Virus record (IMG/VR): IMGVR_UViG_3300027672_001612
Span: 32,001 to 96,000 of that record
Reading direction: 5' to 3' (one strand)
Source of the DNA: a virus
Lineage: Duplodnaviria > Caudoviricetes
DNA: 64,000 nt
Shown here piece after piece: positions 2,815-61,642 of the stretch. Made by a program: the position numbers and the translations under genes. Under the pieces are notes generated by a model that worked only from the letters and a program-made list of their open reading frames with translations, did no database searches and was not told where the DNA came from. Each line of letters begins with the position of its first letter. Position 1 is the first letter of the stretch.

Positions 2815-3967
2815 TTTCGAATACAAGCAAATACAAATAACTACAATTGAAACAATTATTCCGAATGACGACAGTACGTTCAGCCAGTTATATCCATATG
2901 CTAATATAGGCACAAGAAAGTTTCCTAAGTGTTGTATCAGTTTTGAAGATTTTAGACGACTTGATAGTGACCAGATAGAAGACAACCACTTTTTTGAAAT
3001 ATCATACACCGATTGGGTTAACATCGATGATAAAAGTGTATTCAAAGATTATAACCTTATGATTTCCAAAAGCATGGAAGCATTTATACATACTGGGCTC
3101 GATAGTGTCTATCCTGACATTCCCAAGTACTGGTTTGCTGACGATGGTACTTTAGATCAAATTGATCCTAATGCCCCTGACGATAGCAATCGATATATTG
3201 GATTAGACATACCTAAACGCACAGTAGTAGTTACTGATAACATTATGCCTAATGGGCATCCTGTGGAAGGTGTACACTTTATTCCTTCTAATGTATGGCT
3301 TCAAGAGCACGATATTCAAACTCTTCTAGCTGAACAGTTTGATGAAGAAACTATAAGAGAAAATATATTTCATCCTAAAGATAAAAAGTTTATTGCATTA
3401 ATGGGTTACCCTAAACAACACCGTTGGGACTTCTTTAATAAAGTTATCGGTGATAGTGTGTTAGAAAAACAATGCTTAATAGGATCTTATCACCCTAATT
3501 TTAAACGTTCAGTGCGTAACGATACACAACTATCTCCAAGAAGTGACGGACCTAAGTATAGAAACATGGAAGTAGACTGGGTACAGAATTGTCATTTTTG
3601 GATATCAATGGAATCTTGGTATATAGGAGATTTTGATCCTATGAGTCAACTAACAGAAAAAACATACAAGCCCATAGCGGCAGGAATGCCTTTCTTAATA
3701 TCAGGCGGTGGCGCTGAACTTGATCATCTAACTAATCTAGGATTTGAAAACTTTTTAGATGTGTTCGGAGATTATAGAGGAAGTACATTCCAAGAAACTA
3801 ACGACAACATCATAAACATTATCAGTCATCCAGAAAAGTATGACAAGGAAGAACTTGCAACACGATGTATACATAACAATAAAATACTGCAACAATGGAA
3901 TACTGTAGCAGTTTGGGAACATTATTTAGAACAGGTTAATAATGTTTACATTGACAGCAATATATAA
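2801..3967 (+). CDS. Hypothetical protein, possibly glycosyltransferase-like
   Basis: 388 aa; C-terminal ES...LTEKTYKPIAAGMPF resembles GT10-like TEK motifs; GTG start uncertain. Confidence 0.5.
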   Translation: MTPNSFEYKQIQITTIETIIPNDDSTFSQLYPYANIGTRKFPKCCISFEDFRRLDSDQIEDNHFFEISYTDWVNIDDKSVFKDYNLMISKSMEAFIHTGLDSVYPDIPKYWFADDGTLDQIDPNAPDDSNRYIGLDIPKRTVVVTDNIMPNGHPVEGVHFIPSNVWLQEHDIQTLLAEQFDEETIRENIFHPKDKKFIALMGYPKQHRWDFFNKVIGDSVLEKQCLIGSYHPNFKRSVRNDTQLSPRSDGPKYRNMEVDWVQNCHFWISMESWYIGDFDPMSQLTEKTYKPIAAGMPFLISGGGAELDHLTNLGFENFLDVFGDYRGSTFQETNDNIINIISHPEKYDKEELATRCIHNNKILQQWNTVAVWEHYLEQVNNVYIDSNI

Positions 3968-6330: not shown

Positions 6331-6522
6331 ATGAGAAACATAATTGATGGTTTCTGGAACACTTGGGACAAAACAAGTGAATTACTTTTAGATATTAATG
6401 ACTGGTATAAAGAGAAAGTCGAAGATTGGGCTTGGAAGTATAACTTCAGTACATACAACATGACATGGTTAGGATTTGCTGAAGGAGTACTATTAGTATT
6501 ACTCCTACAGTGGTTATTTTAA
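6331..6522 (+). CDS. Small membrane protein
   Basis: 63 aa; hydrophobic C-terminus; GAGG RBS. Confidence 0.65.
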   Translation: MRNIIDGFWNTWDKTSELLLDINDWYKEKVEDWAWKYNFSTYNMTWLGFAEGVLLVLLLQWLF

Positions 6523-6884
6523 TGGAACTTACTCTATTGTTAGGCTTAATGATTAAGCACACAATAGCAGATTACTTTACCCAATACAATTGGATGATTA
6601 AGGATAAGGCAACTTATGGAGCCTTTGGTGGATTAGCCCACGCAGGTTGGCATGGTATATTAACATTTTGTGTGCTACTGTTGATCACACCATTAGCATT
6701 TTGGGTAATGGCTTTATTAGGATTGTTAGATGCAGTTTTACATTATCATATAGATTATGTTAAAAGTAATGTGTGGGTAAATTACGGCTATACACCAGCA
6801 CATCAGATGTATTGGGTTACACATGGCGTTGATCAATTTGCACACTTTTTAACATATATAGGAATTGTATACTTATGCGTATAG
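6522..6884 (+). CDS. DUF3307-like membrane protein
   Basis: H..ADY..Q, H...H, HY.ID and DQ.AH motifs with TM segments. Confidence 0.75.
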   Translation: MELTLLLGLMIKHTIADYFTQYNWMIKDKATYGAFGGLAHAGWHGILTFCVLLLITPLAFWVMALLGLLDAVLHYHIDYVKSNVWVNYGYTPAHQMYWVTHGVDQFAHFLTYIGIVYLCV

Positions 6885-16140: not shown

Positions 16141-16932
16141 ATGGGATGGTTAGCAAATTGTTCTGAGTCAGAACGTGCCAGCATTTTGGCAAAACTGGCA
16201 GGTAGAGCTTATCTAAATGAAGCGGAATTAAAAGCCACAGAAAAAACATTAAAGATGCAAAGGTCGAAAGCAAAATTTATTAAAGACGGAGACGCAGAAG
16301 CGTGGGTATTTATTACTCGTGACGATGCTATTATTGTAAGTTGTAGAGGAACAGAGCCAACTAAGTTCAGCGATATACTAGCAGACTTAAAAACAATACC
16401 AGTTAGGCACCCTAGGGCCGGAAGAGTGCATCAAGGATTCAAAGAGTATTCAGATTTAGTATTCGACGAAATTGTAACACATGTTAAGAAAATGCGTAAG
16501 AAAGACGAAAACGTATTTGTGGTAGGGCATAGTTTAGGTGGAGCGATGGCAGTACTAGTAGCAGAAGGATTATCTGATGCTGGCGTACCTGTTAAAGAGC
16601 TAAGAACATTTGGTCAGCCTAGAGTAGGAAATAGAGCATTCAGAAGACATTTAGAAGGTTGTGATATAGGACGTTATATACGTTATGTTAATAATAACGA
16701 TATAGTACCTAGTGTTCCACCTTCAGCATTTGGCTTTGTACACGGCGGTAACTTGCATTACATAAACAGTTGGGGTCTTATTAGAGACATGACTGTATGG
16801 CAAAGAATGAAAGATGGTTGGAGAGGATTTTGGGCGGCTTGTAAGCAGTTTAAATTCTTTGATTTTGTAGCAGATCATGGCATGCCTAATTATGTAGAGA
16901 AGTCCGGTAACATTGCTAAGTTGGATAAATAG
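16141..16932 (+). CDS. Lipase, class 3 family
   Basis: CRGTE, VHQGF, GHSLGGA, TFGQPRVG, NDIVP, C-terminal DH. Confidence 0.9.
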   Translation: MGWLANCSESERASILAKLAGRAYLNEAELKATEKTLKMQRSKAKFIKDGDAEAWVFITRDDAIIVSCRGTEPTKFSDILADLKTIPVRHPRAGRVHQGFKEYSDLVFDEIVTHVKKMRKKDENVFVVGHSLGGAMAVLVAEGLSDAGVPVKELRTFGQPRVGNRAFRRHLEGCDIGRYIRYVNNNDIVPSVPPSAFGFVHGGNLHYINSWGLIRDMTVWQRMKDGWRGFWAACKQFKFFDFVADHGMPNYVEKSGNIAKLDK

Positions 16933-22849: not shown

Positions 22850-23919
22850 CTATACGTTACAGTAACAGTGACTTCACCTTGTGAGGCACTATTAACAGTT
22901 AAGTAAGCAAGTATATTAGTATCAGCTTCAGCAGTGTACACATAGTTAGGTGTACTTTCATATGGTACTGAAACATCTTCTAAATCACTCTCATCAGCAG
23001 TCATTAACCTATCAGCATCTCCACCGTCACCAACAGTAACTATTGGAGTTGTACCATCAAATGCAGTTGTGGCATTTACTGTAACACTAGTAATTTTACT
23101 ACCCTTACTAATATTACCTAATACAACACTGCCAGTACCCATTGAATAGTTAAACGTTGCTGTGTATGTACCAGCATCAGTAGTGGCACTATCGGCTGTT
23201 CCAATTAGTGTAAGATGACTTGCTATACTTGGATCTGCTTGACCGGCTATGTATAATCTATACTCACCGTCACCGCCATCATCAACTTTAACAAAGTCGC
23301 CTGTTTCAATATCACTAGCGGCGTATAAGGCTGTTAGGTTAGCATAGTTTCTATAAACCATACTTGAACCAGTTGAAGTAACACCAGTGTTACCAACGTA
23401 CCTTGCGCCTGAAACATAAATTACGTTACCGCTTGAAGTGCCTATAGCACTAGGAAGGTTATCACCAATAAAGTTTAATATTCCTGATTGGTAATCAAAG
23501 AACCATTCATCACTTGAACCTGATCCAGTTTCAAATAATTGTGTTCCGTTTGTTTGGACATCCGCTGTGCTTGTAGGAGCCGCATATACTTTTAACTGAT
23601 ATGTTGCACCAAACCCAGGTGGTATCCAATTTGTTGTGTTTGTTTTCCAAGTTCTGTTATCACTTGAACTACCATCTTCTACTATCTCTAATGCGTCACT
23701 AACAGCATCAGTATAAACTACTGCTATGCTACTGTTCGCCGCTGGTATAACTGACGTTATACTTGTACTTTGATTCCAAATATCGGAATCTTTAATAATT
23801 AAACTTGATGCTACTGGTTCGTTAGGTGCCTTTTTACTTGCATTGGTATCAGTCTTTGCTTTACCAAATCCTATCTTTTTCCAAAGTAAATCAATTTTTT
23901 GACTGTCTGAAATTGCCAT
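22846..23919 (-). CDS. Putative virion structural protein
   Basis: Ser/Thr/Gly-rich; C-terminal domain shared with 42834..44861. Confidence 0.7.
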   Translation of the reverse strand: MAISDSQKIDLLWKKIGFGKAKTDTNASKKAPNEPVASSLIIKDSDIWNQSTSITSVIPAANSSIAVVYTDAVSDALEIVEDGSSSDNRTWKTNTTNWIPPGFGATYQLKVYAAPTSTADVQTNGTQLFETGSGSSDEWFFDYQSGILNFIGDNLPSAIGTSSGNVIYVSGARYVGNTGVTSTGSSMVYRNYANLTALYAASDIETGDFVKVDDGGDGEYRLYIAGQADPSIASHLTLIGTADSATTDAGTYTATFNYSMGTGSVVLGNISKGSKITSVTVNATTAFDGTTPIVTVGDGGDADRLMTADESDLEDVSVPYESTPNYVYTAEADTNILAYLTVNSASQGEVTVTVTYS

Positions 23920-26537
23920 TATGCTATACTCAACGAAGTTAGGGAGTCACCAGACTCCAGTTTTATACGCACTAGTATGTTATTACCAAAACTGTTCGTA
24001 GCGTTTTGGTCACCTAGCGTTAGAGTGAATGTATCACTGTTGTAAGTTGTATTGTCTATAATTCTGTCTCCAGAAGTAAATGCACAACCATCTGATCCGT
24101 TACCACCTGCTCCTGTGTTTCCACCTGGAGTACCAGCACCACCATAAGTAGTACCAGCTGATAACCAACCGTTTAAATTACTTGCGGCATCAATGCTTGT
24201 TGCCGGAGCCGCTACAAAGAACCCACTGACCTTACCAGTAAGTGTTACAACAAAGTTAGCCATTGTAGTTCTTCTGAATGCAAAAGTAAAGTATTGTGCT
24301 CCACTTCTACCTGCGTTTAAGTCTGGTCCTGCGGGCAAATATGCTGTGCCACTAAGGTCAGTAACAAAATGCTTAATTGTTCCCCACCTATTTACTGCTT
24401 CTAGTGTGCCAGCGATTGTTTGTGTTCCTGTCCATGCACTACCTGTGTAATAGTTAGTACTAGAACTAAATGTTGGATTGTCTGTAGTTGGGAAACCTGT
24501 AATACGTTTTCCATCATCATTAAAGCCTGCACCTAAACTGTCTGCAACTGCAATAGCTTCTTCATTAATTCCTGTATTGCCGTTCCATGCTTGGATGTAT
24601 TTTGCATTAAGTTCTGCATAATTTCCGTTACCGTTAACATTAAACATTCTTGTTTTAAGTTGTTCAATACCAATTCCGCCACCGTTAACATTAATTGTTA
24701 AGTTGCCTAATGAATATGCAGTACCAGCCGTTTTACCAGTGTTTACATCTGGAATACCACCTGTTAAGTATGATGCTCCGCCTTGTATTTGTGCGTATGT
24801 TTTATATTGTGTTCCAATTACTGTGCCAGTAGTACCTTCTTGGTTAGTACCGTTTGTAATTTGTAATGGAGTACTTGATTGAGCGTATGTTTGACCAATC
24901 CAATCGTATGCTGTAAGTCCAGCTAATGTTAGTGTAGCATCGTTAGTGTAGTAAGGAACGCCTGATACATATCTTAATGTGCCGGGAGTTGCTTGAACTA
25001 ACGTAGCGGCAGATGTATTAACAACTGCTAATGATTCAACATCATCTTTTACAAACTCTAGTGTATTGGTTGATCCCAATGTATGCTGTAGTTTGTAAGC
25101 ATGTGATCCTGCTACAATGCCAACTGTACTTTTTGTAATTCTAGCTTTATAACCTTTGTTTAGTCCTGGGCTATATATTGAACTATTAAAACTTGTACTA
25201 GTTCCGTCTTGTCCAAAAAATTGAAAATCGTCTTCTTCAGTAAGTTGTAATGAAGCATTGGTTCCACTGTCATCACTTCCTGTTAGTGTAATAGCTCCGT
25301 CTGCCGAACCATCAACTATTGCAGTTAATGTGCCTGCATCACCGTTGTATGTTAATTCTGATAATGTATTTGAATTAGTAACAGACCCTGCACTTGCGTT
25401 TGTGATTCTTGTTACGCTGTCTCCAGCTGTCAATGTTCCTGATCCAAAGTTATTAGTAAAGCCAGCAGTTAGTCTAGGTGAACTACCTGAACTGCTCTCA
25501 CCAAATGATATTGACTTATTACCTAAGTGTTCTGGAGCCGTTGGTGCTGTTGCGTAAACTTTAATTTGGTCTGAACTTGTATCTCCAACTTCGCCTGGAT
25601 CTGCTGTACTATGTGCAGTCTGCGTTAATGTAATTGTATTTCTGCTTGAACCTGTGTCACTACCGTATGTGTGACTTGCTCTTGCTTGACCAACATCTCC
25701 TGCGGCGCCACTGGCTACTGAATCAGTAGTTCCATCGCCCCAGTTAATTGTGTAAGTACATGTTGCACTAGCTGAGTTGGTTGTTGTGTTATCTAAGTAT
25801 AATGTTTCTCCTGCACTAATCTCTCTATTGTTACCACTTAATGCACTACCGCCAGCACTAGTTGTAAATATGTTAAAGTTTGCATTTGGAGTTGCAGTAT
25901 ATAATGTTATTAAATCTGTTTTAGTTACAGTTGCAAAACTACCTTCGCCTGAACCACTTGTATTTCTTGCTGTGATTACTAGGTCATATGGTGAGTTTGA
26001 ATTATCTGTATAAGTATGACTTGGAGTACTATCTGATGTTGCAGTTGTTGTGTTTCCATCTCCCCAAACTATGTCATACTGGTTAGCATTACCAACTACT
26101 GAGAGTGTTAGTGTTACTGTTAGTGGATCACCACCTGAACTTACACTAGATGTAGCATCTACACTTTTAACGTAAGTATTGTTTCTAATGTTTTCCATTG
26201 TTTCATTCAATCTATCAATGGATTCTGTAACTGATGTGGAACTAGTTAACGTAGTAACTGCGCCTGGACTAGCCAAGTCTCCGTCACCGCCTGTTCCTAA
26301 TGTAATATTATATGCGTTTGTAGTACTAACTGCTAATGCAGTTTCCATCTGTTGTTTACTAACAGCGTCTGTGCCTATTACACCATCTGCTATTCTAACA
26401 TTTGCTAGTGTTGTACCATCGTTCGCCATCACCTGCATTGAGCTTGTTGATGCGTTGGCAACCAGTTTAGGTCCTCTCTTTCCGAATTGTAAGTCTGTGC
26501 TTACACCTTTCTGTCCAAATCTATTTTCGTTAGCCAA
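23919..26537 (-). CDS. PKD-domain virion or fibre protein
   Basis: Two WGDG...HTY PKD repeats; TTG start with GGAG RBS; late promoter at 26586-26591 (-). Confidence 0.8.
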   Translation of the reverse strand: MANENRFGQKGVSTDLQFGKRGPKLVANASTSSMQVMANDGTTLANVRIADGVIGTDAVSKQQMETALAVSTTNAYNITLGTGGDGDLASPGAVTTLTSSTSVTESIDRLNETMENIRNNTYVKSVDATSSVSSGGDPLTVTLTLSVVGNANQYDIVWGDGNTTTATSDSTPSHTYTDNSNSPYDLVITARNTSGSGEGSFATVTKTDLITLYTATPNANFNIFTTSAGGSALSGNNREISAGETLYLDNTTTNSASATCTYTINWGDGTTDSVASGAAGDVGQARASHTYGSDTGSSRNTITLTQTAHSTADPGEVGDTSSDQIKVYATAPTAPEHLGNKSISFGESSSGSSPRLTAGFTNNFGSGTLTAGDSVTRITNASAGSVTNSNTLSELTYNGDAGTLTAIVDGSADGAITLTGSDDSGTNASLQLTEEDDFQFFGQDGTSTSFNSSIYSPGLNKGYKARITKSTVGIVAGSHAYKLQHTLGSTNTLEFVKDDVESLAVVNTSAATLVQATPGTLRYVSGVPYYTNDATLTLAGLTAYDWIGQTYAQSSTPLQITNGTNQEGTTGTVIGTQYKTYAQIQGGASYLTGGIPDVNTGKTAGTAYSLGNLTINVNGGGIGIEQLKTRMFNVNGNGNYAELNAKYIQAWNGNTGINEEAIAVADSLGAGFNDDGKRITGFPTTDNPTFSSSTNYYTGSAWTGTQTIAGTLEAVNRWGTIKHFVTDLSGTAYLPAGPDLNAGRSGAQYFTFAFRRTTMANFVVTLTGKVSGFFVAAPATSIDAASNLNGWLSAGTTYGGAGTPGGNTGAGGNGSDGCAFTSGDRIIDNTTYNSDTFTLTLGDQNATNSFGNNILVRIKLESGDSLTSLSIA

Positions 26538-45000: not shown

Positions 45001-48000
45001 ATGGCGAACATTAAAAACTTTGGTATCAAAGGTGTAGCCGCAGATATTCAATTTGGTAAGGGCGGAGGGTTCATGGTATATGACAAATCCAATAACAAAT
45101 TCCAAGTTAAAGATTCTGGTAGTAGTTTAGAAGATATTGAATTTGCAACCGTACTGGCGGGTACGTGGGCAGGAACGGCAATATCAGTTGCTAAAGGCGG
45201 AACAGGATTAACAACTGTTGCAACTGGCAAAATTCTTTACACTACAGGCACCGACACATTTGGTCAAACAGATATATCAGCAACAGGTATTTCACTATTA
45301 GGTAGTGCAGATGCGGCGGCTGGTAGAACAGCATTGGGATTAGGCAACGTAGCAACCCAGGCAAACACAGCAGTAGACATCGACGGTGGTGCTATTGACG
45401 GAACAGTAATCGGCGCAAACGCGGCGGCGGCAGGTAGTTTCAGTACTATCAATGCATCAGGAAATATTACTGGCGCATTAGTTGGCAACGCATCAACAGC
45501 CACAACATTAGCAACAGCAAGAACAATTGGTGGAGTATCATTTAATGGTTCTGCGGCAATCAACTTGCCAGGCGTTAACGCAGTTGGTTCTCAGAATACA
45601 ACAGGATCAGCGGCATCGTTAACAACTGGAAGAACAGTATCCGCAACTGGCGATATTGCATGGACATCAGCGGCGTTTGATGGTACTGGTGCAGTAACAG
45701 GCGCGGCAACTTTAGCAACAGTTAACAGTGACGTAGGAACAGCAGGTAGTACTACTTCTATTCCAGTTATCACAGTTAATGCTAAGGGATTAGTAACAGC
45801 AGTATCAACGGCTTCAATCGCAACATCATTTAATATTGCGGCTGACACTGGAACTGCTAACGCATTAGACGGTGGAGAAACACTTTCTATATTAGGTACA
45901 ACAAACGAAATCGACACAATAGTTACAGCAAATCAAATCCAAGTTGGATTGGTTGCTAACCCAACTATTGGCGGTAACTTAACTGTTTCTGGAAACTTAA
46001 CTGTTTCTGGTACTAGAACAGACGTTAACGTAACAAACATGGCTGTAGAAGATTCACTAGTTGCTTATGCTACTGGTAACTCTTCAGACGCAGTTGATAT
46101 TGGTTTCTTTGGTAAGTTCAACGACGGATCAAATGATTTAGCAACTGGTTTATTCAGAGATGCGAACGATGGTAAATACCACTTGTTCACTAGCTCACAG
46201 GAAACTATCTCAGGTAACGTAGTAGACAAAGCGGCAACAGGTTATGCTGTAGCTTCTTTGAAAGCAAATACAGAAGGAACACATACTGGTGCAGTAATTG
46301 GTAACGTAACTGGTGATACATCAGGAAGTGCTGGAACTGTAACAAGTATTGCAAGTCACGTAATTGATTCAGATTCTATGGCAGGTGCTTCGGCAACTAA
46401 CGTAGCTTCAGCAGAATCAACTAAAGCATACGTCGACGCTACAGTAGGTGCTATTAGTACAGTACTAAGTGTTGGCGCAGACAGTGGTTCAGATGACGGA
46501 GTTACAGTTGGAACAGACACATTAAACTTTAATGGTACAGCAAATGAAATTGAAACAACAGTTAGCGACAACGCTATTACTGTTGGATTAGTTAACTCAC
46601 CAACAGTAAGTGGTACAATGACAGCGGCAACATTCGCTGGTAACTTAACTGGTGACGTAACTGGTACAGCTTCATTGGCAACATTAGCCGCTGATGCAAC
46701 AACATTAGCAACCGCAAGAGCAATAGGTGGAGTATCGTTTGACGGTTCTGCAGATATTAACTTGCCAGGTGTTAATGCCGCAGGTAACCAAGCAACAAGT
46801 GGTCAAGCAGGAACAGTAGCAACTATTGCCGCTTTCGTACTTGACGAAGATAACTTTGCAACGAACAGTGCAACTTTAGTACCTTCACAACAATCTGTTA
46901 AAGCATATACTGATGCGGCTATAGCCACAGCAGTTTCGGCTTCAGACTTAGACTTCACAGCAGACAGCGGTGGTGCTTTAAGTATAGACTTAGATAGTGA
47001 AACATTAACTATTGCAGGTGGTACAGGTCTTTCAACTGCTGGTGCTGGTAACGGCGTAACAGTTAGTTTAGACGCTACGGCAGTAACCGCAGGATCATAT
47101 GGTAGTACAACTGCTATTCCTGTTATTACAGTAGATGCACAAGGTAGATTGACATCGGCTTCAACAGCCGCTATTAGTACTGCTTGGACACTTACAGGTG
47201 ATACTGGAACTCAAACTGTTAACGGTGGAGACACAGTTGACATAGCAGGTGGAACTAATATTACTACAGTAGCTAGTGCAACTGACACATTGACAGTTAA
47301 TCTAGATTCTAACGTAACTGGTTTAACATCTTTGGGTGCAACAACAGTAACAGGTACAACAGTAACAGATGGCACGTTTAGTGTTAATAGTGGTGCTATA
47401 ACAGGCGCAACTAGTATTGGTGCAGTTGACTTAGTATTATCCGGTAACTTAACTGTTAACGGTACTACAACAAGTGTTTCATCAACTAACACTACAATCT
47501 CAGATACATTGATTGAATTACAATCAGGACTAGCTGGCGGAAACAGTAGTGATATTGGTATTGTACTAGAACGTGGTAGTACTGGTGATAACGGCTTTAT
47601 GGGTTGGGACGAGAGCGAAGACAAATTTGCTTTTGCAACAACTACAGCAACAGGTACAGCCACTGGCGACTTAACACTTGCAGATGCAGGTATTAAAGTT
47701 AGTGACGTATTAGCTTCTGGAACTGTTACATTCGCAAGTTTAAGCGATGGAGCAATTACAATAGCATCCTTCCAAACTACACTTACAGATAGTGACACTA
47801 TTGTTCCTACCTCAGGTGCTGTTAAGGATTATGTTGATTCACAAGTAGCCGCAGTAGATGATACTGTCTTAAGAGCTTCCTTTACAGCTAACTCTTCAGC
47901 AAGTTCATTCAACATTGGCGTTATGCCTAACACATCTGGTAGAACTTATACTGGATCAAAACTTACTCTTAAAGTTGCTACTGGTTTTACTGGTAACGGC

Positions 48001-48219
48001 GTTGATGGTATTGTTGTTAACGACGGAAGTAATGACTTAATGGCAGTGGTTCAAAATGATCCAACTGTTACTGGTCTTTATGTTGTTGATTTAGGCGCAG
48101 AAACTATAGCCGGCGGAGCAACTATTAGTTGTTCATTCAAGCAGTCAGACGGAACAACAGCTTCCGTACCAACTGCTGGTGCGGTAACGGCGACTGTTGA
48201 ATATCAGTTCTTTACATAA
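45001..48219 (+). CDS. Long tail fibre-like protein
   Basis: 1072 aa with internal repeats (TLATAR.IGGVSF.GSA.INLPGVN x2; GSTT.IPVITV x2; GNLTV.G); late promoter at 44901. Confidence 0.85.
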   Translation: MANIKNFGIKGVAADIQFGKGGGFMVYDKSNNKFQVKDSGSSLEDIEFATVLAGTWAGTAISVAKGGTGLTTVATGKILYTTGTDTFGQTDISATGISLLGSADAAAGRTALGLGNVATQANTAVDIDGGAIDGTVIGANAAAAGSFSTINASGNITGALVGNASTATTLATARTIGGVSFNGSAAINLPGVNAVGSQNTTGSAASLTTGRTVSATGDIAWTSAAFDGTGAVTGAATLATVNSDVGTAGSTTSIPVITVNAKGLVTAVSTASIATSFNIAADTGTANALDGGETLSILGTTNEIDTIVTANQIQVGLVANPTIGGNLTVSGNLTVSGTRTDVNVTNMAVEDSLVAYATGNSSDAVDIGFFGKFNDGSNDLATGLFRDANDGKYHLFTSSQETISGNVVDKAATGYAVASLKANTEGTHTGAVIGNVTGDTSGSAGTVTSIASHVIDSDSMAGASATNVASAESTKAYVDATVGAISTVLSVGADSGSDDGVTVGTDTLNFNGTANEIETTVSDNAITVGLVNSPTVSGTMTAATFAGNLTGDVTGTASLATLAADATTLATARAIGGVSFDGSADINLPGVNAAGNQATSGQAGTVATIAAFVLDEDNFATNSATLVPSQQSVKAYTDAAIATAVSASDLDFTADSGGALSIDLDSETLTIAGGTGLSTAGAGNGVTVSLDATAVTAGSYGSTTAIPVITVDAQGRLTSASTAAISTAWTLTGDTGTQTVNGGDTVDIAGGTNITTVASATDTLTVNLDSNVTGLTSLGATTVTGTTVTDGTFSVNSGAITGATSIGAVDLVLSGNLTVNGTTTSVSSTNTTISDTLIELQSGLAGGNSSDIGIVLERGSTGDNGFMGWDESEDKFAFATTTATGTATGDLTLADAGIKVSDVLASGTVTFASLSDGAITIASFQTTLTDSDTIVPTSGAVKDYVDSQVAAVDDTVLRASFTANSSASSFNIGVMPNTSGRTYTGSKLTLKVATGFTGNGVDGIVVNDGSNDLMAVVQNDPTVTGLYVVDLGAETIAGGATISCSFKQSDGTTASVPTAGAVTATVEYQFFT

Positions 48220-48313: not shown

Positions 48314-48616
48314 ATGACTAAAGACAAAGACGGCGACGGTAACGAGCCAATAGACAACGTAGTAAAGTTTCCTTCAAAACCAAAGAAGGCGGACAACGAC
48401 ACTCATTACGAAATTACTATTGAGAGTTTTAGCCCTGAAGAGTTACACACCAGAATGTCAGATATCGACGATTCATACGAAGCATGTTTTCACTATGCGA
48501 AAGCAATTGAATACACCATGCATAATTTCACCACAGACCTAGACCTAAACCAGCTTCAGGCCCTAGAAATCAAGTTAAAAGAGATATTTTTGGAGTTTGC
48601 TCCAGAAAAAGGTTGA
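48314..48616 (+). CDS. Hypothetical protein
   Basis: 100 aa with DNVVKFP motif. Confidence 0.7.
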   Translation: MTKDKDGDGNEPIDNVVKFPSKPKKADNDTHYEITIESFSPEELHTRMSDIDDSYEACFHYAKAIEYTMHNFTTDLDLNQLQALEIKLKEIFLEFAPEKG

Positions 48617-48641
48617 CATTGGTACCGGATTTTAGTATAAT
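48613..48641 (+). promoter_or_regulatory. Sigma70-type early promoter
   Basis: AAAAGG-TTGACA-17-TATAAT. Confidence 0.85.
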
Positions 48642-48688
48642 ATATGCATAGGTTGAGAAAACAAACATACATTTCGTAGGAGTAATAT

Positions 48689-49783
48689 ATGGAAACATTA
48701 ACAGTAAGACCCAGTCAGACAAAGAACATTGTAAACAGAGCCTTTTTGGCGAAGAGACCAATATTCATGTGGGGTGCACCAGGAATTGGTAAATCTGAAC
48801 TAATAGAGGGTATTGTAAAGGACATGCCCGGTAACAATTTAATGATTGATATGCGTCTAGCATTAATGGAGCCAACTGACCTTAGAGGTTATCCGTTCCG
48901 TAATGCAGAAACAAATCAAATGGAGTGGGCGCCACCGGCAGACCTTCCTAGCATGGAGCAGTCAGAACTGTACGACACGATTGTATTGTTCTTAGATGAG
49001 TTGAACTCAGCTCCTCCAAGTGTACAAGCGGCGGCATACCAGTTAGTCCTTAATGGTCGAATTGGTCAGTACGTTATGCCAAGCAATGTAAGAATTGTAG
49101 CGGCTGGTAACAGAGAGACTGATAGAGGTGTTACTTATAGAATGCCTAGTCCGTTAGCAAACAGATTCCGTCATATTAACATGGACATTAACTTCGAAGA
49201 TTGGAGTGTTTGGGCTGTTAATAATAAGATACACCAAGATGTTGTTGGGTACTTAACATACAGTAAAGCAGATTTATTTGACTTTGATCCTAAGACATCA
49301 AGTCAGTCATTTGCTACACCACGTAGTTGGTCTTTCGTAAGCGAAATACTAGAAACTGAAGGGTTTGAGTTTGCTCCTGACTTTGAGCAGAAGGCAGAAA
49401 TTGCTGGAGCAGTTGGAGAAGGCATGGCTATTAAGTTTTGTGAACATAGAAAGGTTGCTTCAAAGCTACCTAACCCAGAAGATGTATTAACTGGTAAAGT
49501 TAAGACCCTTAAGGTAAAAGAGAAGTCAGCTCAGTACTCATTCGCAATTGGATTATGCTACGAACTAGCCGCTCTTAATAAAGCGGACGACGAAGCGGCA
49601 TTTGACAAAGGTGTTGATTACTTCTTTGACTTTATAATGGAGAACTTTGAACCTGAGTTGGTTATCTTTAGTGCTAAGAGTGTTCTTAGTGACCACGACA
49701 TAGATATTAAGCCTAGAAAACTCCAAGGCAAGAAGGAGTTTAAGGAACGGTACTGGAAGTACTTGTTCCCCGCTACGGTATAG
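48689..49783 (+). CDS. MoxR-like AAA+ ATPase
   Basis: GAPGIGKS, LFLDELN, AAGNR, PLANRF, TPRSW. Confidence 0.88.
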   Translation: METLTVRPSQTKNIVNRAFLAKRPIFMWGAPGIGKSELIEGIVKDMPGNNLMIDMRLALMEPTDLRGYPFRNAETNQMEWAPPADLPSMEQSELYDTIVLFLDELNSAPPSVQAAAYQLVLNGRIGQYVMPSNVRIVAAGNRETDRGVTYRMPSPLANRFRHINMDINFEDWSVWAVNNKIHQDVVGYLTYSKADLFDFDPKTSSQSFATPRSWSFVSEILETEGFEFAPDFEQKAEIAGAVGEGMAIKFCEHRKVASKLPNPEDVLTGKVKTLKVKEKSAQYSFAIGLCYELAALNKADDEAAFDKGVDYFFDFIMENFEPELVIFSAKSVLSDHDIDIKPRKLQGKKEFKERYWKYLFPATV

Positions 49784-49786
49784 GAC

Positions 49787-49900
49787 AAAAAAAACTGTTG
49801 CTGTATCCTACAACGGTACTTGGTTATACTCGTACCGTACGTTACTCCTACAACCTAACAGCAAAAAGTTTTACCCTGCTCACAAGGCGGGGTTTTTTTT
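49787..49900. ncRNA. Candidate small structured RNA with duplicated TCCTACAAC, ending in an intrinsic terminator (49873-49900)
   Basis: Nested stems; 9-nt repeat at 49806 and 49846; ACCCTGCT/GGCGGGGT plus T8. Confidence 0.45.
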
Positions 49901-49910
49901 GATTAAAAGG

Positions 49911-49939
49911 TTGACTATGGGGTACTTTGGTAGTATAAT
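49911..49939 (+). promoter_or_regulatory. Sigma70-type early promoter
   Basis: AAAAGG-TTGACT-17-TATAAT. Confidence 0.85.
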
Positions 49940-49974
49940 AGTTGTATATTAAGTAGAAATTGTAGGAGGTTTTT

Positions 49975-51312
49975 ATGTCATTTAAAACAGATACATTAGC
50001 AGTGAAAGGACCAAAGATAACAGGAACACCAAGCGATACAGCTCACAAGGCTATTGCTACTATTCCTGAATCCAAGCTCACAGATAAAGAAGTTGAAGAT
50101 AGACTTATATCAACTCGTATTAACATGTTACTACAATGTCCGTTCTACGGAAACTTAGCATGTCGTTTAGAATTTAAAGACGCTAGTGAATGGTGTCCAA
50201 CTGCCGCAACAGACGGCAAGTACTTCTACTACAATAAAGATTTTATATCAGCACTAACTATTCCAAACTTAGTTTTCCTTTGGGGACACGAAGTAGAGCA
50301 TTGTGTTTACGATCACTTTGGTAGACGAGGTGACCGTAATCCAATGCTTTGGAACATTGCTAATGACTATGTAGTAAACATGGATTTAGTAGAAGGTAAC
50401 ATTGGTGAGAGAATTACACTAGTTGAGATACTGTTTGATTACAAGTATCGTAACTGGATGAGTGAAGAAGTATATGCTGACTTGTTCAAGCAAATGGAAG
50501 AAGACGGCAAAGATTTTGAAGATGGAACTACACTTGATGTTCACTTAGATATGGAAGATGGTGAAGACGAAGGTAGTGGTCCAGGTATGGAAGGTAACGT
50601 TAATGACGGAACCAAAGGTCCAGTAAGATATACAGAAGACGAAAAACGTAGTATTAAAGAAGCATTTAAGAATGCTACGGTACAGGCGGCACGTTCGGCT
50701 GGCGCTGGTAACTTACCTAGTGGCATTAAACGTCTTGTAGATGATCTAATTAATCCACAACTTAGTTGGAAAGAGTTACTACCACAGCAAATCCAAAGTG
50801 TAATGAGAAGTGACTATAGTTACAATCAGTGTTCACGTAAAGGAATGGACAGTGGCATTTGGTTGCCAGGCATGGACAGAGAAGAGACTATAGATATCGC
50901 AGTTGGTATTGACACATCAGGATCAATGAGCGATGAGATGCTTAGAGATATCCTTAGCGAAACAAAAGGTGTTATGGATCAATACAGCGACTTCCGTATA
51001 CACTTGTTCTGCTTTGATACTGAAGTACATAATCCACAAGTGTTCACTGAGCATAACATGGAAGAGTTTATGGAGTACGAGCCAGGCGGCGGCGGCGGTA
51101 CTGACTTTGATTGTTGTTTCGATTGGTTCAAAGAAGAAGGCATAGTGCCTAAGAAGTTCGTAATGTTTACAGATGGTTACCCTTGGAACAGTTGGGGCGA
51201 TGAGAACTACTGTGATACATTGTTTATTGTGCATGGCGGAGGCTATGGCGGGCAGACACCTGTTGCACCTTTCGGCATAACTGTACCTTACAATAGAGAT
51301 GAAGTAGCATGA
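49975..51312 (+). CDS. Metallopeptidase-like plus vWA domain protein (DUF2201-like), partner of the MoxR ATPase
   Basis: TAATDG, HEVEH zincin motif, DTSGSM MIDAS, GGGGTDF, FTDG. Confidence 0.85.
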   Translation: MSFKTDTLAVKGPKITGTPSDTAHKAIATIPESKLTDKEVEDRLISTRINMLLQCPFYGNLACRLEFKDASEWCPTAATDGKYFYYNKDFISALTIPNLVFLWGHEVEHCVYDHFGRRGDRNPMLWNIANDYVVNMDLVEGNIGERITLVEILFDYKYRNWMSEEVYADLFKQMEEDGKDFEDGTTLDVHLDMEDGEDEGSGPGMEGNVNDGTKGPVRYTEDEKRSIKEAFKNATVQAARSAGAGNLPSGIKRLVDDLINPQLSWKELLPQQIQSVMRSDYSYNQCSRKGMDSGIWLPGMDREETIDIAVGIDTSGSMSDEMLRDILSETKGVMDQYSDFRIHLFCFDTEVHNPQVFTEHNMEEFMEYEPGGGGGTDFDCCFDWFKEEGIVPKKFVMFTDGYPWNSWGDENYCDTLFIVHGGGYGGQTPVAPFGITVPYNRDEVA

Positions 51313-61210: not shown

Positions 61211-61642
61211 TTATTTACCTTTGCTAAACGCCTGAGCACCAAAGAATGCGGCAACAATACCGGCAACTGCAACAAAGTATGTTGGTGCCATTGATCCTAG
61301 TGTTGACTGTGCTTCACTTAGTCCTGCCAAGCTGGCAAAAACTACTGCGAATGGGTATAGTAACATGCCAAATAATGAGAACCAAGCCATCTTACGTTGA
61401 GCATCTCTCATTGCATCTGCATCTTCTAATTCTTTTCTCTTGAATTCTAAGTGCATATCCATTTCACCTTTAGAGATATGTCCATCTCCGTTAGTGTCTA
61501 TATCTTCCATTCCTTCGACTGTTTTAAATCCACGATTATCAACTGTCGGACCATCACCAGCTGGAGCATCGCCTGCCGCTTTTGCCTTCAATGCATCATA
61601 CTCTTTACGGGTCATGCTTACTTCTGCTTTATCTTCTGCCAT
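61211..61642 (-). CDS. EF-hand-containing membrane protein
   Basis: DTNGDGHISKGE loop; two C-terminal TM helices; AGGAG RBS; late promoter at 61693-61698 (-). Confidence 0.75.
   Translation of the reverse strand: MAEDKAEVSMTRKEYDALKAKAAGDAPAGDGPTVDNRGFKTVEGMEDIDTNGDGHISKGEMDMHLEFKRKELEDADAMRDAQRKMAWFSLFGMLLYPFAVVFASLAGLSEAQSTLGSMAPTYFVAVAGIVAAFFGAQAFSKGK

Follow-up and report, generated by a model that had tools for sequence, protein, structure and literature searches.

What is the function of the structured sequence that separates a moxR-like gene from the gene of its vWA partner in an uncultured marine phage? The window, meaning the whole 64,000-nucleotide stretch of DNA analysed here, comprises bases 32001-96000 of a 109,775-bp IMG/VR record, for which CheckV estimates a completeness of ~30%; this implies that the record is a fragment of a jumbo phage genome. 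The first-pass annotation of this DNA described an outer stem, an inner hairpin, a pair of repeats, a terminator and complements of ribosome-binding sites (RBSs) between the two genes, each of which is found in place. It offered two interpretations, an antisense RNA acting on mRNAs led by a Shine-Dalgarno (SD) sequence and a minus-strand sponge for the protein CsrA. The reading favoured here, with a probability of roughly 0.6, is that the sequence would act as a 3'UTR anti-RBS riboregulator limiting the synthesis of MoxR and, often, of vWA.

The genes and promoters around the element are as follows.

48613..48641 (+), moxR promoter, TTGACA-17-TATAAT, sigma-70-type, 12/12 consensus
48689..49783 (+), moxR-like AAA+ ATPase gene, 364 aa (Pfam AAA_5; PHROG phrog_1297 ATPase, E = 1.5e-91)
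49911..49939 (+), vWA promoter, separate from that of moxR, 11/12 consensus
49975..51312 (+), vWA partner gene, 445 aa (Pfam DUF2201_N, E = 7.5e-38; DUF2201, E = 9e-14)

As moxR has its own promoter at 48613-41, which is also kept upstream of the gene in relatives, it is a monocistronic unit, made up of the promoter, an A-rich leader of ~40 nt for which no structure is predicted, the coding region and a 3'UTR of 117 nt. The domains of the vWA partner are a metallopeptidase-like N-terminal domain (DUF2201_N) and a VWA-like domain (DUF2201), and its gene neighbours that of a MoxR-class AAA+ ATPase. This is the arrangement of the MoxR-vWA chaperone pair known from group 2.2 jumbo phages, for which a role in virion assembly has been proposed (PMC7824862). 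Directly upstream of the moxR unit lies a gene for a 1072-aa tail-fibre-like protein (window 45001-48219, +), a neighbour that fits such a role. PHROG phrog_1314 also matches the vWA partner at 49975-51312 (E = 1e-107) under the label 'HNH endonuclease', which looks wrong because of the metallopeptidase-like and VWA-like domains that Pfam assigns. The closest cultured phage is Pseudomonas phage PA5oct, at 49.6% MoxR identity; the moxR relatives were drawn from TARA and other marine metagenomes, and all carriers of the element are metagenomic and uncultured.

The element lies within the moxR 3'UTR, between the stop codon, which ends at 49783, and the terminator at 49873-49900, and its parts can be listed in order.

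49791..49804 (+), closing stem, 5' arm AAAACU.UUGCUGU, identified from the fold and from covarying stems in relatives
49806..49814 (+), first UCCUACAAC repeat, unpaired in the fold; the CCUAC motif is kept here in relatives
49813..49838 (+), inner hairpin ACGGUAC (49813-19) / GUACCGU (49832-38), a lineage-specific insertion with a degenerate second anti-RBS copy
49841..49857 (+), anti-RBS core GUUACUCCUAC and tail AACCUA, unpaired and including the second repeat; UACUCC is invariant and the core is a complement of the moxR RBS
49858..49872 (+), closing stem, 3' arm ACAGCAA..AGUUUU, identified from the fold and covariation
49873..49900 (+), intrinsic terminator of the moxR unit, with an 8-bp GC-rich stem at 49873-49893 containing 5 G-C pairs, then T8

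Taken as a whole, the hairpin at 49791-49872 (+) begins 8 nt past the moxR stop codon, has a loop of 53 nt on an interrupted stem of 13 bp, and abuts the terminator, in which a GC-rich hairpin is followed by a U-run on the transcribed strand. This layout is compatible with a stable RNA derived from the 3' end. The plus-strand fold has a z of -3.5, with 0/200 shuffles as good, against -2.1 for the minus strand, and the element is single-copy in the 109.8-kb record. The repeat TCCTACAAC is found at 49806 and 49846 and has 3 copies in the whole window where 0.69 are expected, a number reached by 5/100 shuffles. Both of the repeats that had been annotated as twin anti-SD motifs are real, but the full CUCC core occurs only in the second, the first having UCCU. 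The inner hairpin is likewise present in the window but cannot be taken as a general feature, being a variable insertion seen only in the window's near relatives and missing from most clades. In three of these relatives (L247, L249 and L251) its loop contains a second intact GUUACUCC, which in the window is degenerate (GGUUAUACUC); the intact copies make the inner hairpin look like a tandem duplication of the anti-RBS motif. Elsewhere in the window, at 6480-6512 (+), a GGAGUA...UACUCC hairpin with the UACUCCUAC word (6493-6508) lies within a small hydrophobic ORF (6332-6523); this look-alike resembles coding sequence and is unrelated to the moxR element.

A protein-guided search for moxR was used to gather relatives, and the element follows this gene in ~80 distinct sequences from marine and viral metagenomes, with MoxR identities of 54-99%. 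It is carried by every IMG/VR relative with a MoxR identity of at least 54% (44 loci, L130-L173, plus the L190 group), and directly 3' of moxR by all marine-metagenome loci with 3' flank sequence. Among more distant moxR relatives it is missing, including PA5oct, which has a plain terminator behind its ATPase gene. When the 19-mer of the clade-B loop was scanned for exact matches, 34 were found, and all 32 with upstream sequence sit 30-60 nt after moxR, with vWA directly next to them, ~1 kb further on or absent from the fetched stretch. That the element tracks moxR with or without an adjoining vWA implies that it is part of the moxR 3' end and no part of the vWA leader. This refines the first-pass annotation, which placed the element between the two genes.

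The architecture shared by the carriers is an 8-15 bp closing stem around a loop of 24-30 nt, with a GC-rich hairpin behind it. The stem sequences are almost wholly different across clades (5' arms include CUGUUGCUGU, CCUUGUGC, ACUAGAGA, CACUGGGC, GGAUUGAGC and UUGCUCG) and the pairing is kept. When 22 distinct sequences of clades B and C are aligned with the model, 9/9 stem pairs have changed on both sides and 92.9% of cells pair, while 0/500 shuffles reach the observed score and slid controls are at most 52% paired. These counts are limited to clades B and C because MAFFT misaligned the 3' arms in mixed-clade and clade-A sets; the stems of clades A and D were checked by constrained folding, and the model R1, with its clade-B seed, found clades B and C and missed the window's clade A even with filters off. 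Retention after moxR in close and mid-distance relatives, with compensatory stem changes, places the element far beyond chance, the loci being related by shared ancestry and not phylogenetically independent. Across 32 representative hairpins, G·U accounts for 22/358 stem pairs. Since an RNA read from the minus strand would have A·C mismatches in their place, and since the terminator is on the plus strand, the RNA must be that of the plus strand; covariation, G·U pairs and terminator all agree with the earlier placing of a structured plus-strand RNA in the moxR 3'UTR.

Some local variation accompanies this conserved layout. In L143, L149, L150, L153, L160 and L172, the GC-rich hairpin lies ~60-100 nt past the moxR stop and is followed by UCACCUU or similar, without a U-run; termination at these loci may be non-canonical, or the hairpin may be otherwise used. 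A clade-B subgroup (L140:3605-3620, L147:3605-3625, L151, L156, L311 and L323) has an SD-like AGGGAG(UAA) at or just after the moxR stop, which complements the loop sequence CUCCCU over 6-9 nt. Such post-stop matches, of at least 6 nt, are found in 27% of unique sequences versus 11% of shuffles, and the AGGGAG could form a self-sequestering pseudoknot or serve as a sensor of terminating ribosomes.

No Rfam 15 family was matched at its gathering score in the window, and none of relevance at E <= 1 in the window or its relatives; the best overlapping matches were terminator-driven (Trp_leader, 21 bits versus a threshold of 41; anti-hemB, 17 versus 49.5). The clade-B loci produced zero Rfam 15 family matches, and ARAGORN found no tRNA or tmRNA. 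A DNA search of cultured phages returned weak matches only, inside the moxR coding region, and a 14-mer scan of viral contigs chance matches only. The RNA represents a family absent from the Rfam 15 catalogue, although the class of mechanism discussed below is already known from a few bacterial mRNAs.

The clue to a function lies in the loop, the consensus of which was compiled for each clade.

Clade A loop, AUCCUACA-CGUUACUCCUACAA(CCUA)
Clade B loop, CCUACCUAUGUUACUCCCUACCUA
Clade C loop, CCUACUACUCCUCCUACCUA
Clade D loop, GUUACUCCUACACCUAC

UACUCC is invariant in 31/31 aligned hairpins, and the loop reads as an extended anti-SD sequence between CCUAC repeats, with the pattern GUUACUCC..UAC..ACCUA. 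A likeness between the loop and the complement of the 16S rRNA h44/h45 region was deemed coincidental. For GUUACUCC the predicted partner in the moxR leader is GGAGUAAC, and the sites in the window to which the loop is complementary are these.

48649..48655 (+), 5'-proximal moxR leader motif UAGGUUG, complement of the loop tail CAACCUA (49851-57)
48676..48686 (+), moxR SD region GUAGGAGUAAU, proposed loop target, 10 nt exact plus one G·U to 49841-51
49960..49968 (+), vWA RBS UUGUAGGAG, likely secondary target, 9 nt complement to CUCCUACAA

The moxR RBS GTAGGAGTAA (48676-85) is the exact complement of TTACTCCTAC (49842-51), and the reported complementarity of the unpaired loop to the moxR and vWA RBSs recurs in relatives. 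In 31/31 representative loci, drawn from all clades, 7-11 contiguous nucleotides of Watson-Crick complementarity link the loop to the moxR RBS GGAGUAAY, compared with a median loop match of 4-6 nt at other SD-bearing start sites. When SD-bearing candidate start sites are ranked by duplex energy, the moxR initiation region comes first in 24/31 loci, and in the record of the window itself it is 3rd of 166. The comparison was confined to such sites because annotation-free duplex scans of the whole record and whole loci are noisy, with some coding-region sites scoring at least as well as the moxR initiation region. Of the record's 162 genes, moxR is the one whose initiation region and own 3'UTR share the longest complement (10 nt), a length reached by only 0.23% of non-self gene pairs. 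The RNAcofold ddG of -8 to -12 kcal/mol is only indicative, because the closing stem must open for an intermolecular duplex and cofolding cannot model pairing by a loop inside a closed stem.

The match extends beyond the SD core. Of 56 unique combinations, 46-52 pair loop positions -1 to -4 with the four RBS nucleotides that come after GGAG (U-A-A-Y, +1 to +4), and GGAGUAA makes up only ~5% of candidate RBSs in the record. Carriers of the element nearly always have (GU)AGGAGUAA(Y), or a GGUAGG variant, as their moxR RBS, and the moxR RBSs of element-less relatives are unrelated (for example ACGAGG, AAGAGG and AAAGGAAC). A few changes in sequence leave the pairing intact: complementarity is preserved in L171 (RBS GGAGUAGUA versus loop UACUACUCC), in L256-258 the RBS GGAGUAACGAU has no 5' GUA but gains ACGAU, giving an 11-nt match to the loop AUCGUUACUCC, and an A-to-G change in L253 retains a U·G wobble. 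True covariation between loop and RBS is sparse, consisting of one clear double change along with register shifts and wobbles, so that the support is mostly conserved complementarity, which is partly generic to any SD/anti-SD pair.

A second segment of the leader can also be aligned with the loop. The promoter-proximal UAGGUU, GUAGGUU or UAGGUA of relatives matches a loop tail of CAACCUA, AACCUAC or UACCUA lying just 3' of UACUCC, and this complement is at least 6 nt long in 25/59 unique combinations versus 2.7% of shuffles. The order of the leader segments fits a single antiparallel, bipartite duplex with the loop.

The mechanism we infer from these matches, as regards pairing in vivo, repression of translation and action in cis or in trans, is as follows. 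The hairpin loop GUUACUCC-UAC-AACCUA would pair with the moxR initiation region through a main helix, GGAGUAAY/GUUACUCC, predicted to reach 10-11 bp in many phages, often joined by a second short helix between the 5'-proximal leader UAGGUU and AACCUA. Masking of the SD would hinder binding of the 30S subunit and reduce translation of MoxR, amounting to negative autoregulation. The pairing might be intramolecular, between 3'UTR and 5'UTR once transcription is complete, or might be made by a stable fragment consisting of the hairpin and terminator. In many phages the loop may also pair with the vWA RBS, a contact in trans that would tie the output of one chaperone subunit to that of the other.

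For vWA, an effect would have to be exerted in trans, because its promoter lies behind the moxR terminator. The vWA RBS belongs to the word family of the moxR RBS (UUGUAGGAG, GGUAGGAG and UAGGAGUAAC, for example). Among targets other than moxR, the vWA initiation region comes first in 13/27 loci and second in six more, through a match with the loop that is shorter and less constant than that of moxR. The fuller scheme of a dual-target riboregulator, which would bind the moxR leader in bipartite fashion in cis or trans and the vWA mRNA in trans, and would set the stoichiometry of the two-subunit virion-assembly chaperone in a large clade of uncultured marine jumbo phages, is put forward tentatively, at less than even odds. 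Other sites in the window also resemble targets. Besides the vWA RBS (49960-68), the RBSs of two genes on the minus strand, 23919-26537 and 61211-61642, contain TTGTAGGAG. The RBS AAGGAGUAAC of the tail-fibre-like gene 45001-48219 has a 9-nt complement with the loop and may be an extra target. An esterase/lipase-like gene at 16141-16932 (+) has the initiation region GUAGGAU-N9-GGAGUAA-N4-AUG, with the best full-loop duplex energy in the window's record (-24.3 kcal/mol).

The loop, at ~24 nt, is conserved beyond the needs of pairing to one RBS, which hints at extra targets or a protein partner. The latter is the basis of an unlikely alternative, that the hairpin is a protein-binding, processing or 3'-stability element, in which an RNA-binding protein of phage or host reads the CCUAC/UACUCC loop and the RBS match is incidental. 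Such a role would suit a loop that is near-invariant in sequence while its two to three CCUAC repeats are arranged differently between clades, the position beside a terminator, where stabilising hairpins are common, and the sparseness of true covariation with the RBS. It leaves unexplained why one type of moxR RBS accompanies the element and gives way to others in relatives that lack it, why register-shifted matches of 10-11 nt are found, and why a second leader segment is present in the correct antiparallel order.

Extra targets, taken to their limit, give the antisense RNA of the first-pass annotation: a global trans-acting anti-SD sRNA, stable and derived from the 3' end, that would repress many SD-led mRNAs of phage or host and be escaped by leaderless phage mRNAs. 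The generic CUCC or CUCCUCC anti-SD core in the loop, the conservation of more loop positions than one target requires and the 9-nt matches at the RBSs of 23919-26537 (-), 61211-61642 (-) and 45001-48219 in the window's phage could all be accommodated by such a function. So could the promoters of the window, of which 6/14 with consensus sequence place an ATG 6-7 nt past the -10 box; these TTGAC-N17-TAnnnT promoters lie at 3951, 5360, 17658, 21297, 35281 and 48279 (+), and an ATG so near the -10 box implies that a sizeable share of early-type transcripts look leaderless. Nevertheless, it is only the moxR RBS, and to a lesser degree the vWA RBS, that keeps its complementarity across clades, the other SD-bearing sites falling short of such matches, and the complement extends to the non-SD flank UAAY, which is moxR-specific. 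A global role is accordingly quite improbable; the anti-RBS character of the RNA stands, with moxR's own initiation region, not SD-led mRNAs generally, as the conserved primary target.

The sign of the effect could also be the reverse, with the same 5'-3' pairing making the moxR mRNA more stable, perhaps by keeping an endonuclease off the leader or SD. The complementarity evidence for protection is identical to that for repression, the A-rich, predicted unstructured leader would be suited to it, and there is a precedent in hbs of B. subtilis, in which an interaction between 5' and 3' UTRs shields the mRNA from RNase Y (PMC5737220). Against this, the duplex covers the SD core and can reach the AUG in the window's lineage, and should therefore compete with the 30S subunit, which makes a positive role doubtful and an improbable substitute for repression.

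Selection at the level of DNA, for an operator or protein-binding repeat sharing the GTAGGAG word with promoter-proximal leaders, is very improbable: the word does occur in the moxR and vWA leaders and, inverted, in the element, where the window's repeats are 40 bp apart, but the spacing of the repeats varies from 5 to 40 nt, and what selection seems to have acted on, judging by compensatory stem changes and strand-specific G·U pairs, is the fold of an RNA.

CsrB, RsmY and RsmZ are sponges that bind CsrA, and the suggestion that a minus-strand RNA with GGA motifs in its loops plays a similar part here is hardly credible, as the window's minus strand does read GUAGGA and GUAGGAG and end in U8, but has the weaker fold, loses the 22 G·U stem pairs to mismatches, is without the A8/T8 run in relatives such as L132, L134 and L142, has no promoter that could be found and no match to the Csr/Rsm covariance models of Rfam, and would yield transcripts stopping before the element is reached, the conserved terminator being on the plus strand. 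The likeness to these sponges is superficial, since the AGGA words are restricted to the minus strand and the loop of the transcribed strand has no GGA. A minus-strand start-stop mini-ORF (AGGAG-N5-AUG-UAG), seen in L132-type sequences, was dropped as it is not conserved.

The anti-RBS riboregulator favoured here has its closest known counterpart in the icaR mRNA of Staphylococcus aureus, in which an anti-SD motif in the 3'UTR pairs with the mRNA's own SD region and blocks translation (PMC3868564). In both cases an unpaired 3'UTR motif is complementary to the SD of the same mRNA. The two share no sequence or structural homology: icaR uses UCCCCUG within a long 3'UTR, whereas the moxR motif lies in the 24-30 nt loop of a conserved hairpin next to the terminator, is borne by marine phages and has a bipartite complementarity that extends to a second gene, vWA. 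OppZ and CarZ of Vibrio cholerae, sRNAs derived from 3'UTRs that are autoregulatory via the RBS of their own unit (PMC7398697), resemble a putative RNA from the moxR 3' end in sharing the unit's terminator and having a seed complementary to the RBS of its own operon, with negative feedback as the predicted outcome. They are released by RNase E, depend on Hfq and use a linear seed, whereas that of the moxR element is in a hairpin loop. Mechanism is thus what links icaR, OppZ and CarZ to the moxR element, which is homologous to them in neither sequence nor architecture.

Repeated pyrimidine-rich anti-SD motifs in unpaired loops are also a property of the C-rich-loop sRNAs of Firmicutes (RsaE/RoxS and the RNAIII hairpins), which bind the SD regions of several mRNAs (PMC6158497). 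Those are independent bacterial genes with CCCC/UCCC motifs, in contrast to an element within a 3'UTR whose best target is its own mRNA. The putative contact with vWA is reminiscent of Listeria, in which a factor and its chaperone are coupled from mRNA to mRNA (PMC8722363), as the moxR 3'UTR would pair with the separately transcribed leader of a functionally linked gene, judging by complementarity; the two cases are unlike in sequence and in the direction of the effect.

The element makes a good case for study, with strong comparative support from the covarying stems and invariant loop of ~80 distinct sequences. The partner predicted for it, the RBS of its own gene, is explicit and easily tested, and it could be moved into laboratory reporters even though its carriers are uncultured. 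It would also be a new motif for catalogues of RNA families. To our knowledge, regulation by bacterial 3'UTRs is limited to a handful of cases and post-transcriptional control in phages is largely unexplored; if the riboregulator reading is true, we know of no earlier description of a conserved autoregulatory 3'UTR in a lytic phage. For the phages themselves, the element points to tight control over the dosage of the MoxR-vWA pair.
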